DNA of 24,367 bases from Candidatus Micrarchaeota archaeon. Lineage in GTDB: Archaea; Micrarchaeota; Micrarchaeia; Anstonellales; Bilamarchaeaceae. The position numbers were made by a program. Below, in pieces: positions 9,001 through 12,000 of this stretch. The stretch covers positions 13,980 through 38,346 of the forward strand of contig JBBITJ010000005.1 in NCBI GenBank assembly GCA_037440825.1, written 5' to 3'. Position 1 is the first letter of the stretch; each line of letters starts with the position of its first letter.

Positions 9001-12000
9001 TCGTCCCGTCTCCCCCTATGAGCACGCACACGTCCTCCCTGGCGGAAACGAGCTCCTGCTTCCTGGATTTGAGCAGCTGCTCAGCCTCCTTCGCGACCTT
9101 TGCAGCCCATTCTTTGGCAGGATTGAAAATTATCCTGAATCTCATGCTATCATTGGAGTGCTTGCACGTAGACCTTCCGGTTCCTGGGTCCGTCGCCTTC
9201 CACAAGCAGTATGCGCTGCCAGCTCCCCAGCGCTAGTTTGCCGTTATGCACGGGGACCACCACGCTCGTGCTTATGAGCGCGGAAAGCAAGTGCGCTTCG
9301 GCATTACCGTCAACCTTGTTGTGCCTGTAATCCGCCTTAGGGGCTATCCTGTTGAAAAAGTCCTTGTAATCCTCCTTTATGTTCGGCTCGTACTCGTTTA
9401 TCGTGACTGCTGCGGTGGTGTGCGGAACGAAGACAAGGCACGCGCTGCCCTCCTCGTCCTTCATCGCCTCCTTGACGAAATGCGTGATGTCCAGCACTTC
9501 GGTCTTTGCCCTGGTCTTCACCATGAACTCCTCCATCTAATCCCCTTTTTTCTTCTTTATCATTCCCATCACAGGGTGGCTGCCGAAGATCCTGGTGTAG
9601 TTCTTTATGAATGCGAGGAACGCCTTGGGCCTTCCTATGACCATCTTCCCATCCATTTTCCTCGTGGGGAACCCGAGCCGCATGAACAGCAGCTCGTCCG
9701 AGCTTCCGAACCTCTCCAGGTACACGATACCCTGCTCGCTTATCCCTCCAACCGCGTCGAACACGCCCGCGAGGTAGTTCGCCGAATACTCGTTTATGTA
9801 CTTGTACCTTTCCAGCTTGCCGTCCTCTATCTCCTGGAAGAATTTCCTGTACTTGCTGTGGTAGAAATAGATTTTCCATTCGTCGGAGAGCAGCTTGTCC
9901 GATTCGGTGAGCTTCTGCTCCAGCACCTGCTGCGCGAAAATCTCCTGCATCTTCTTGTTCCCCTCTATGCCCACTCCTTCCTTGCTGCGCCTCTTCGACC
10001 ACAGCCCTATGAGGTATGAGAGTTCCGGGGTGAGCTTTATCTTCATCAATATCACACTTGCTCAATGAACAAGCTTTTCCTTCTCTTTCTCCTGCTGCTT
10101 CTGCTCAGGCAGGACTTCCTCCTTCTTCGGAACCACAGCCGCCTTGCTCATCTGTGCCTTGAGCTCCATCGTGAGCAGCTCGTCAACGCTCATCGCGAAC
10201 TTCCTTGCCGCCTTCGCGGAGAGCGAATGCCTTGCGAATATTCCTTCTAGTTCTTTCTTCTCCTCGGCGGAGAATGGCTCCTTGCCTTCCCCTGCACGCC
10301 TGTCCGCGGATTCCAGCAGCGCCGCGAACCTCTTCACATCCGACTCGCTCTGCTCTCCTCCTGCAAGAGTGGAGAGTATGGCCCTTGAGATGATAATATT
10401 CCTCTTTTCTGTCCTGAGAAGCAGCCTTTCCACAGCCCTGGTGTCCTTTTCACCCAGCTTGCCCATGCGCAGCGCGTGCACAACGCGATTCGCAAAAGCC
10501 ACGAACGAATCGTTGACGTTCATTTATATCGGAATAGTGATGTTCTAAATCCTTTAAAACCCTTTTCTACCTAAATATCCTTAGTGGACCCAGGTGAGCC
10601 CCGGGTCCCGGGTTTCGAGTTTTGCATTCCAAACTGAAAACCGCAGGCTGGAAACCGCAAATGAAACCCGTTCAACCCAAAAAGCGCCTGCTTTCTGGGC
10701 CCGTAGCTCATCCAGGTTAGAGCGATGGTCTTATATGGCGTCCTCTAATACATGTTATTAGATGACTGTCTGAGCTAGCCATAGGTTCGGAGTTCAAATG
10801 TCAGCCCAAGGGGGCAAGCCCCCTTAGTCCGACACCACCCAAACCCCCAAATTTGAGTGGTATCACGTTTCTCGTTTCCGGCAAACCGGAAACTCGAGAC
10901 AGGAAACTGAAATTCTCCGCGGGCCCAATTTTCTTCTGTTTCCAGTCTTCAGTCTCCAGTTTCGCATGGGGAAAACAGGGGGCGCAGCCAGCAGGAGACA
11001 ACTCCAATTTTTCCTACTTGTTTCCCGTTCCGGGTTTCGAGTCCCCGGCTTTCTCCTTCGGCTCCTGCTCCTTGATTATGCCAGCTATGATGTCCTGGTT
11101 GGGCACCTTCTCCACCTGCCTGGGCGCAGGCGGCTGGACCTGAGGAGCGAAAGGCGCCGCAGGCTTCTGCTGCACCTTGGCCGCCTCCTGCCTCTTCCTC
11201 ACGATATAGAATCCATACGCTTGGAGCGCAACTGTGGCGATTCCGAGCCCCACCATCGCTATTTCCGAGATGTTCACGAACGTCTGCCTGCCCACTTTGG
11301 TGAAAAGTCCATTTGCCTGCATTACGAAATGGTAGAACGCGAATATGAACGCCACGTAAGCGAGCCGCTGCACGTTCTTCCAGTTCGGCACGTTTTTCAC
11401 AGCCCAGTCCATGGAAGTCGCAGCTAGAACCACGAATATCACAAGCGCCAGGAGAGCGTAAATTCCGGACTCTATGGCGAGCACGGATTGGAGCTGCCCT
11501 CCATACGTGATCAAGAAAGATATCGCGAAATGCCCGAGCACGAATGCGAACGAGGCGATTCCGACCGCCCTCCTGTGCGCAAGCAGGATCGCGAACTCCT
11601 TGGGCGCGATTATCGCCAGCGGCCCAATCATTAGCGAAGCGCAGAGCAGCAGGAACCCGCCGAGCCCCAGGAACCTCGCGACAGCCGTGGATGGAGGCAC
11701 GTCGAAGAGCGCGTTGTACGCCGCGAGCGCAGCCAATGCGGCAACCATGACCATCCAGAGAAAGCTTCCCTTGTCCATAGATATCAACCTTCACGCCCTG
11801 CCGCATCGAGGGGCTGGCCGAGCTTCCCGATGATGTACGAGTCGAGCACGCTGTCAGCATACCTAGAATGCCTGTGGCTTCTGTTCGCGCCGTGGTATAT
11901 TTCGCTGGCGTCGGTTCCGCAATAGTTCTTGAACTCGTCTCCAGCGGGATGCGTGACGTATGACGTAAGGTCTGCCACATTGCCGTCTATGACCATCCAG

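Follow-up and report, generated by a model that had tools for sequence, protein, structure and literature searches.

The window, a 24,367-nt stretch of contig JBBITJ010000005.1 from a Candidatus Micrarchaeota archaeon (assembly GCA_037440825.1), harbored a genuine isoleucine tRNA gene whose anticodon is UAU and whose sequence is split by two introns (Table 1). The anticodon (TAT, 10732-10734) lay inside exon 1. Exons joined in silico by their coordinates gave a 75-nt RNA which, as claimed in an earlier note on this DNA, formed a perfect cloverleaf, with 4/4 stems paired and a single G-U pair, located in the anticodon stem. ARAGORN called this product tRNA-Ile(tat), a call that rests on anticodon and fold. 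In its acceptor (GGGCCCG), its D arm and its A73 the tRNA resembled the tRNA-Ile(GAU) of the same genome (GGGCCTA..., A73) and differed from the elongator-type CAU tRNA (acceptor GCCAAGG), an indirect hint at charging by IleRS. The 41-nt anticodon-loop intron of the earlier note was found at 10736-10776, at position 37/38. For the 115-nt intron, which the note had placed at T-loop position 60/61, the length and the location in the T loop stood, while the bulge-helix-bulge (BHB) geometry moved the position to 59/60. This second splice site is the only correction to the earlier description; of the span given there, 10696..10927, the end was kept, and the start falls one base upstream of the gene.

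Table 1. Features of the tRNA-Ile(UAU) locus (window coordinates)
Feature	Coordinates	Strand	Description
Whole tRNA-Ile(UAU) gene	10697..10927	+	231-nt precursor, position 1 to discriminator A73
Exon 1	10697..10735	+	39 nt; acceptor 5' strand GGGCCCG, D arm, anticodon-stem 5' strand, loop positions 32-37 CTTATA
Intron 1	10736..10776	+	41 nt; at the canonical 37/38 site; complementarity gives a strict hBHBh' motif
Exon 2	10777..10798	+	22 nt; A38, anticodon-stem 3' strand GCCAT, variable region AGGTT, T-stem 5' strand CGGAG, T-loop positions 54-59 TTCAAA
Intron 2	10799..10913	+	115 nt; T-loop site 59/60 (60/61 reads equally well); relaxed hBH motif; strongly structured interior
Exon 3	10914..10927	+	14 nt; T60, T-stem 3' strand CTCCG, acceptor 3' strand CGGGCCC, discriminator A
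T-rich tract	10929..10941	+	Directly 3' of the gene; putative transcription stop, from sequence

On the unspliced DNA of the window, ARAGORN reported no gene and Rfam no match at the gathering threshold. The tRNA model RF00005 matched genomic DNA over the 5' part only (10697-10808; 18.9 bits, E 0.12), below its gathering threshold of 29 bits, as an intron in the T loop would lead one to expect. A second twice-interrupted tRNA was observed in the same window. For annotation, this essential tRNA-Ile(UAU) gene, the second twice-interrupted tRNA and the initiator tRNA were all missed by standard finders, so that Micrarchaeota genomes appear unable to read their commonest isoleucine codon.

Splice sites were assessed against a BHB motif made of a 4-bp central helix and two flanking 3-nt bulges, cut after the second bulge base, with an outer helix. 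Both introns fitted this register by complementarity, with 4/4 central pairs each. In intron 1, the central helix (CTTA/TGAG, one G-U) was flanked by an outer helix of 5 bp, the anticodon stem, and an inner helix of 4 bp. In intron 2, set at 59/60, TTCA (10793-10796) faced TGAA (10908-10911), the 5-bp outer helix was the T stem, and the inner helix reached 2 bp only. Cuts at 59/60 and 60/61 would yield an identical mature RNA, because a T flanks intron 2 on both sides. The 4-bp central helices of both introns were absent from unconstrained minimum-free-energy folds: intron 1 formed its outer and inner helices, and in the fold of 10788-10919 (-49.1 kcal/mol, z -5.0, 0/200 shuffles as good) the T stem closed across intron 2, which folded into three hairpins. 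The BHB assignment therefore rests on in-register complementarity.

These properties of intron 2 (a relaxed motif with a 2-bp inner helix, a minimum-free-energy fold lacking the central helix, two cut positions indistinguishable from sequence, and an excision read from sequence) lend something to the view that the insertion in the T loop is something other than a spliced intron and that the locus is a disrupted pseudogene or a gene matured otherwise, for instance with a different nuclease cutting at 60/61 or with assembly from separate transcripts. The gene content of the genome and the record of its relatives make this very improbable. The genome contained no second UAU copy, yet ATA accounted for 3.2% of its codons, and T-loop introns were likewise found in its essential initiator tRNA, at 59/60, and in its tRNA-Arg(UCG). 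It also encoded a 392-aa endonuclease whose residues 3-392 matched residues 3-387 of 4fz2_A over the full length (E 2.8e-145), 4FZ2 being the epsilon2 enzyme (VSEN) of ARMAN-2 (PMC12397907). Pfam recognized in this protein two N-terminal-domain stretches and one catalytic domain, and by homology it is classed as an epsilon2 three-unit splicing endonuclease of the ARMAN-2 type. As described in PMC3239211, introns at 37/38 and at 59/60 are both substrates of the ARMAN-2 endonuclease, which cuts a relaxed 59/60 motif in vitro; this argues for splicing at the present locus as well. A second endonuclease paralogue (159 aa) and the ligase RtcB (484 bits) were also present. Among 20 listed sequencing runs that contain this stretch, none was recorded as RNA.

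Relatives displayed the same arrangement. The search pattern, a tRNA 5' half with UAU, was found in at least 306 of the 401 genomes sampled from the phylum, with one match per genome, and in 142 of the 188 high-quality ones, while a reversed control pattern gave no match among the matches listed; the recurrence of this 5' half is thus more than chance. The genome under study had a single TAT anticodon loop with a full tRNA 5' half. Within its family f1, the pattern occurred in 66/75 genomes, in substance the conservation reported earlier (26 of 29 family loci with the same CUUAUA loop). A set of 51 loci was examined (the window, 30 picked automatically and 20 picked by hand), of which 38 were parsed fully by script, and all 38 spliced products were called tRNA-Ile(tat). 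T-stem and acceptor pairs co-varied across the intron among these relatives. Pair variants numbered 8 in the acceptor, 8 in the anticodon stem and 16 in the T stem, counts that lean towards structure since the parsing script requires pairing.

An intron at 37/38 interrupted all 38 parsed loci (15-145 nt), with a 4/4 central helix in 34 of them. T-loop introns were found in 26/38 (31-421 nt); scored at 59/60, the central helix was 4/4 in nine, 3/4 in four and at most two pairs in 13 of these 26, so that several of these introns probably interrupt the T loop elsewhere. In the own genus, the T-loop intron was resolved in 6/7 loci, and the seventh was also interrupted. Intact, co-varying exons around an insertion so variable in length, and the presence of a T-loop intron in every resolved locus of the genus, speak against a pseudogene or an unspliced insertion.

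Genus g25 gave no match with two 5'-half patterns, nor any UAU tRNA among the Rfam hits inspected in one g25 genome. A 3'-side pattern recovered the UAU gene in 3/3 genomes of this genus; its anticodon stem holds an additional intron there, the only cause of the 5'-half misses. Two genomes of other families (G017 of f15 and G085 of f21) showed no UAU gene with any of the three patterns.

Most archaea read AUA with an agmatidine-modified tRNA-Ile2(CAU) produced by TiaS. In the genome under study (875 kb, completeness 95.6%), the TiaS domain PF08489 (TiaS_FLD) gave no match, and it was found in 0/401 genomes of the phylum sample, while four archaeal controls were positive; the absence of TiaS stated in the earlier note was thereby borne out on a larger sample. 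That note had cautioned that a single Pfam domain had been searched. A second model, PF22641 (TiaS_TCKD), run on the own genome only, also returned no match there, again with four positive archaeal controls. For TilS (TilS_N, TIGR02432), no protein of the genome exceeded the cut-off of 93.6 bits; the best hit, at 72.6 bits, fitted NcsA better. Genes for Elp3 and NcsA were present. The Pus1/TruA family, the route to eukaryotic pseudouridine-34, had no match in the genome.

Two CAU tRNAs, and no third, were found in the genome: an initiator, with acceptor AGCGGGA and three G-C pairs closing the anticodon stem, and an elongator-type tRNA whose acceptor, GCCAAGG, was unlike the GGGCC-type acceptors of both isoleucine tRNAs. 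The census of the genome comprised 45 tRNA genes. Tyings of acceptor pairs to a T-arm or D-arm anchor recovered the known genes and a few new ones. Three other approaches were discarded: enumeration of all acceptor pairs was too noisy (83,679 pairs, 19,540 after a loose filter and 245 after a stricter one), a first scan for CAU stem-loops returned 463 candidates that were nearly all coding sequence, and GTTTC/GAAAC-rich stretches were poor markers of hidden tRNAs, as only 13 of 64 such regions lay near known tRNAs.

In principle, some or all AUA decoding could fall to a hidden tRNA-Ile2(CAU), its C34 modified by some unrecognised enzyme, with the UAU gene in a secondary role. Some tRNAs do escape the census scans, since Thr(GGU), Gln(CUG) and Leu(CAG) tRNAs were not found in the genome though their codons are used, and the initiator tRNA, masked by two non-canonical introns, came to light only on manual inspection; moreover, new C34 modifications are still emerging in other lineages, as described in PMC11938285. 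We nevertheless give this explanation very little weight. Neither CAU tRNA resembles the isoleucine type, and an isoleucine-type acceptor and D arm with CAU occurred in 0/151 genomes of the phylum, using a pattern that has no positive control from TiaS-bearing archaea. TiaS was absent by two models and TilS was lacking, while the UAU gene is kept across at least 306 of the 401 genomes. The three ARMAN genomes were likewise described with no tRNA-Ile(CAU) found (PMC3239211).

ATA was the commonest isoleucine codon, as noted earlier from counts of 8566 ATA, 4568 ATC and 1893 ATT of 224,997 codons. The recount over 815 crude ORFs agreed in substance (ATA 8270, ATC 5223 and ATT 2329 of 256,199), ATA representing 52% of isoleucine codons. 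Read as isoleucine, ATA brought isoleucine to 6.2% and methionine to 2.3% of codons, both ordinary shares. When the endonuclease gene was compared with relatives at its 11 ATA codons, 134 of 197 aligned codons were ATA, ATT or ATC and two were ATG, in this one gene and among relatives of the same phylum. ATA codons are thus used and, judged by these exchanges, mean isoleucine.

Fidelity of a UAU tRNA is not automatic: as described in PMC3895270, a haloarchaeal tRNA-Ile mutated to U34 (cnm5U) bound AUA > AUG > AUU, and the Elp3 gene of the present genome could start such a U34 modification. A functional UAU tRNA reading both AUA and AUG loosely, or a lineage in which ATA is not strictly isoleucine, would be compatible with these observations. 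The chance of either appears slim, given the rarity of ATG in the endonuclease comparison and the ordinary isoleucine and methionine shares; the heavy use of ATA itself argues that this codon is decoded accurately enough.

The locus is very probably a single tRNA-Ile(UAU) gene, spliced twice, that reads AUA in place of tRNA-Ile2(CAU) and TiaS. The proposal of the earlier note, that AUA is probably decoded by this tRNA rather than by an agmatidine-modified CAU tRNA, is accordingly supported by a gene that is single-copy, intact and conserved, by the absence of TiaS and TilS, by the 151 genomes in which no isoleucine-type CAU tRNA was found and by the exchange of ATA with ATT and ATC. Transcription would give a precursor at least 231 nt long, from which the three-unit epsilon2-type endonuclease would remove the 41-nt intron at 37/38 (strict motif) and the 115-nt T-loop intron at 59/60 (relaxed motif). 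RtcB would ligate the three exons, and the mature 75-nt tRNA would be charged by IleRS. Its U34 would pair with the A of AUA, allowing the tRNA to replace the agmatidine-modified tRNA-Ile2(CAU) along with TiaS. U34 may be modified through an Elp3/NcsA route, or may stay unmodified like the U34 of the tRNA-Ile(UAU) in Mycoplasma mobile.

A more speculative extension, which we regard as doubtful, is that Micrarchaeota read AUA with a U34 tRNA and keep AUG for methionine by means of a U34 modification undescribed in archaea, or of ribosome or IleRS adaptations like those of Mycoplasma mobile. If true, the phylum would be a natural system for learning how archaea manage without agmatidine. Separately, the T-loop 59/60 site of this gene may be where small mobile repeat units land as they move between tRNA introns.

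Outside the phylum, Nanoarchaeum equitans and Korarchaeum cryptofilum are reported to lack tiaS (Ikeuchi et al. 2010). Both are described as having a UAU tRNA and lacking tRNA-Ile2(CAU) (PMC6000648, PMC8450103, PMC3895270), and both belong to other phyla; one intron is described in the tRNA-Ile(UAU) of K. cryptofilum (PMC6000648), against two here. Mycoplasma mobile is likewise described as reading AUA with a UAU anticodon in a cell that has no C34-modifying enzyme (PMC3575796), but it is a bacterium lacking TilS and its gene has no introns.

The closest likeness is with ARMAN-2 (Candidatus Micrarchaeum acidiphilum), of the same phylum as the present genome. As described by Fujishima et al. 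(2011, PMC3239211), ARMAN-2, -4 and -5 have a tRNA-Ile(UAU), no tRNA-Ile(CAU) was found in them and TiaS is absent; the present genome likewise has a tRNA-Ile(UAU), no TiaS match and no tRNA-Ile(CAU) among the 45 tRNA genes of its census, and it shares the intron at the canonical 37/38 site, of strict hBHBh' type, and, with ARMAN-2, the same epsilon2 endonuclease type. The ARMAN-2 tRNA-Ile(UAU) is described there with a single 25-nt intron, whereas the present gene has a 41-nt intron and a second, 115-nt one in the T loop. A counterpart of this second intron occurs in a different tRNA, the tRNA-Cys(GCA) of ARMAN-2, whose 13-nt intron has the same position (59/60) and motif class (relaxed hBH) in the same source (PMC3239211). 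That intron was cut in vitro by the epsilon2 enzyme, while intron 2 here is known from sequence, is about nine times longer and forms three hairpins.

AUA decoding by tRNA-Ile(UAU) in the absence of TiaS is therefore already published for the phylum (ARMAN-2) and for ARMAN-4 and -5. In print since 2011 (PMC3239211), this reading makes the present locus a good annotation, not a discovery, and leaves knowledge of AUA decoding itself unchanged. What is new here is the second intron in tRNA-Ile(UAU), how often relatives have it, and the counts across the phylum, which extend the 2011 observation from three ARMAN genomes to 401 sampled genomes of the phylum, with TiaS in 0/401 and a UAU gene recognisable in at least three quarters, and which mark the tRNA-Ile(UAU) gene as a frequent site of T-arm introns.

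On the plus strand of the window, sequence reading and in-silico splicing resolved the gene for tRNA-Ile(UAU) (10697-10927) into three pieces (see table), with positions 32-37 of the anticodon loop, including anticodon TAT, at the end of exon 1. Joining the exons by coordinates with a script gave a 75-nt RNA that ARAGORN called as tRNA-Ile(tat), with all stems paired, which upholds the earlier note's reading of a UAU tRNA with introns of 41 and 115 nt. On the unspliced window, ARAGORN detected no tRNA gene and Rfam gave no match at the gathering threshold, and RF00005 reached 18.9 bits on the genomic DNA of the gene, confined to its 5' part. 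The gene is thus rightly described as hidden from standard finders.

Coordinates of the features (window positions, or contig of the own genome, G000, where a C number is given)
Feature	Location	Strand	Description
Exon 1, tRNA-Ile(UAU)	10697-10735	+	acceptor GGGCCCG, U8, standard D arm, anticodon-stem strand ATGGT, loop CTTATA
Intron 1	10736-10776	+	41 nt
Exon 2	10777-10798	+	A38, GCCAT, AGGTT, T-stem strand CGGAG, TTCAAA
Intron 2	10799-10913	+	115 nt
Exon 3	10914-10927	+	T, CTCCG, CGGGCCC, discriminator A
Flanking ORF	10062-10523	minus	no Pfam match
Flanking ORF	10949-11980	minus	no Pfam match
ORF	12204-13187	+	RsmB/F (NOL1/NOP2/Sun) RNA m5C methyltransferase family, 135 bits
tRNA-Arg(UCG)	17040-17256	minus	spliced 73 nt, ARAGORN tRNA-Arg(tcg)
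tRNA-Arg(UCG) intron at 37/38	17112-17219	minus	108 nt
Initiator tRNA-Met(CAU)	C11:10046-10186	+	located by hand only
RtcB ligase	C12:21585-24377	+	within single 983-aa open frame
Hairpin-plus-tail unit	C9:11479-11530
Hairpin-plus-tail unit	C28:6586-6639
Hairpin-plus-tail unit	C28:2282-2319
Hairpin-plus-tail unit	C6:1009-1060
Hairpin-plus-tail unit	C12:14031-14053

The archaeal bulge-helix-bulge (BHB) register consists of a 4-bp central helix and two 3-nt bulges, cut after the second bulge base. Scored in this register, intron 1 displayed a full central helix (4/4), an outer helix of 5 bp (anticodon stem) and an inner helix of 4 bp, and intron 2, placed at 59/60, a full central helix (4/4, TTCA/TGAA), an outer helix of 5 bp (T stem) and an inner helix of 2 bp. 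Intron 2 had been assigned to T-loop position 60/61; the T loop stands and the register gives 59/60, a difference of labelling rather than substance, since a T on either side of the intron makes the mature RNA identical for 60/61. In unconstrained folds the outer helices formed and intron 2 was strongly structured (z -5.0), and the short central helices of both introns were absent, so that the evidence for the motif is complementarity in register and not thermodynamics. According to passages of PMC3239211, the ARMAN-2 enzyme cuts pre-tRNA-Cys at 59/60 in a relaxed motif; intron 2 shares both this site and this motif type.

The exact 5'-half pattern with UAU was found in 306 of the 401 phylum genomes (304/399 when leaving out G197 and G028, two unpublished genomes that both matched), with a single match per genome and no match for the reversed control, both among the matches listed. 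A CAU version of the same architecture with an Ile-type acceptor was found in 0 of 151 genomes, using a pattern without a positive control outside the phylum. None of 15 genomes from genus g25 matched the exact UAU pattern, and the tRNA was found in 3/3 genomes of this genus by a pattern built on the sequence 3' of the loop. One of them, G012 (locus L148, contig G012:C8), had a further intron, about 20 nt long, in the 5' strand of the anticodon stem, kept the 37/38 intron and lacked the T-loop intron; the intron set therefore varies by genus. A looser pattern matched G045 (family f19), and no pattern tried matched G017 (f15) or G085 (f21).

Fifty-one loci were examined (the window gene, 30 picked by tool and 20 by hand), 38 of which were fully parsed by script. 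All 38, once spliced, were called as tRNA-Ile(tat) and carried the 37/38 intron (15-145 nt). A T-loop intron, 31 to 421 nt long, occurred in 26/38; the T stems of these 26 comprised 12 different pairs, a count biased towards structure by the parser, which requires pairing. From base-pair frequencies, a chance match of T stem plus acceptor within 700 nt was roughly estimated at 1 in 700. In the own genus, the T-loop intron was defined in 6/7 loci (86-421 nt). The remaining 13/51 loci had interruptions elsewhere (variable region, right after the T-stem strand) or extended past the fetched stretch. The last anticodon-stem pair, 31-39, was a U.G wobble in 36/38 parsed loci and U-A in two, a conserved oddity beside the anticodon loop.

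ATA was the commonest Ile codon (ATA 8270, ATC 5223, ATT 2329, with ATG 5853, among 256,199 codons), close to the figures first reported, as counted on 815 greedily chosen ORFs (a crude gene call); AUA use amounted to 32 per 1000 codons. Aligned with 18 Micrarchaeota relatives, the 11 ATA codons of the splicing endonuclease gene corresponded to Ile codons at 134/197 positions (ATA 77, ATT 45, ATC 12; alongside Val 22, Leu 19 and Met 2) and its 8 ATG codons mainly to Met (70), in this one gene and with the internal stop of one relative (L086) read as X.

The claimed lack of TiaS was borne out by two domain models, TiaS_FLD (PF08489) and TiaS_TCKD (PF22641), both of which matched nothing in the own genome and detected the same four archaeal controls. 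PF08489 was found in 0 of 401 genomes sampled evenly across the phylum, and in 0 of 188 high-quality genomes. The best stretch for the TilS N-terminal model stayed below the cut-off (72.6 against 93.6 bits) and scored higher for NcsA.

The tRNA census reached 45 genes (34 above the Rfam cut-off, extended by our own scans). Among them, tRNA-Ile(GAU) is interrupted by 16 nt, and an elongator-type tRNA(CAU), whose acceptor is GCCAAGG, by 76 nt at a single intron each; Leu(CAA) and Lys(CUU) were seen by their 5' halves alone. The initiator tRNA(CAU), also counted, displayed one U.U mismatch in its T stem and introns at two non-canonical sites, one of 32 nt at about 30/31 and one of 34 nt at 59/60 with a 12-bp inner helix. 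No third CAU tRNA was found in the own genome by scans that also missed Thr(GGU), Gln(CUG) and Leu(CAG). These scans were not exhaustive, since ACC/ACT, CAG and CTG are well-used codons there; the three genes probably lie behind introns or in unassembled sequence. By the tRNA-Ile2 mechanism, as outlined in parts of PMC3895270, a CAU tRNA without TiaS would read AUG anyway. The window held a second hidden, twice-interrupted tRNA, tRNA-Arg(UCG), missed unspliced by ARAGORN and Rfam; its 36-nt T-loop intron has a candidate position at 56/57, giving TTCGAAT and a central helix of 4/4.

Introns of tRNA-Arg(CCU) and tRNA-Leu(CAA), as well as the surroundings of other tRNA genes, shared a recurring hairpin-plus-tail unit roughly 50 nt long. 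Similar units occurred twice in tRNA-Ile(UAU) at L061 (genome G016, same genus), within its T-loop intron of 421 nt, and a different repeat within several T-loop introns of G012, which suggests small mobile units moving between tRNA introns. GTTTC and GAAAC words were enriched about tenfold, at 22 per kb against a genome-wide 2.1 per kb, around the tRNA-Ile(UAU) gene (window 10560-11060) and within intron 2; 64 stretches rich in them were found genome-wide, many intergenic, 13 of the 64 near known tRNAs.

The genome (875,410 bp, 45 contigs, 54% G+C, 95.6% complete) encoded a 392-aa splicing endonuclease, a second paralogue of 159 aa and RtcB. The contig search yielded 21 relatives of the 392-aa protein (20 Micrarchaeota/Micrarchaeia/Micrarchaeales and one ainarchaeum), the closest being 82-87% identical. 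The alignment of this protein with PDB 4FZ2 spanned the entire chain (E 2.8e-145); 4FZ2 is described in PMC12397907 (2025) and PMC3488258 as the apo ARMAN-2 epsilon2 enzyme. The Pfam match of RtcB fell into two parts, positions 1-50 and 46-426, separated by about 1.4 kb, which looks like an intein insertion. The tRNA-Ile(UAU) gene would probably be transcribed, its precursor cut twice by the epsilon2 enzyme, its exons ligated by RtcB, and AUA read by the mature tRNA via U34.

Genes for Elp3 (620 bits) and an NcsA-like protein were present, which could allow a U34 modification of xm5U or s2U type. No match was found in the own genome for the TruA/Pus1 family, the source of pseudouridine-34 in eukaryotes. 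A haloarchaeal U34 tRNA-Ile with cnm5U also bound AUG (PMC3895270), which bears on how this lineage keeps AUG for Met at such AUA use.

The observation of the gene is confirmed, and AUA reading by tRNA-Ile(UAU), and not by an agmatidine-modified CAU tRNA, is supported by an intact and conserved UAU gene, the missing TiaS and the prevalence of ATA. Supplements of PMC3239211 aside, no further report of a phylum-wide account, or of a T-loop intron in tRNA-Ile(UAU), was found in the open literature. Other archaeal tRNA-Ile(UAU) cases appear, in excerpts of PMC6000648, PMC3895270 and PMC8450103, for N. equitans and K. cryptofilum. Three ARMAN lineages, according to Fujishima et al. 2011 (PMC3239211), possess tRNA-Ile(UAU) and lack tRNA-Ile(CAU) and TiaS homologues; the gene described here is a more interrupted case of this already published kind, and adds little that is new.
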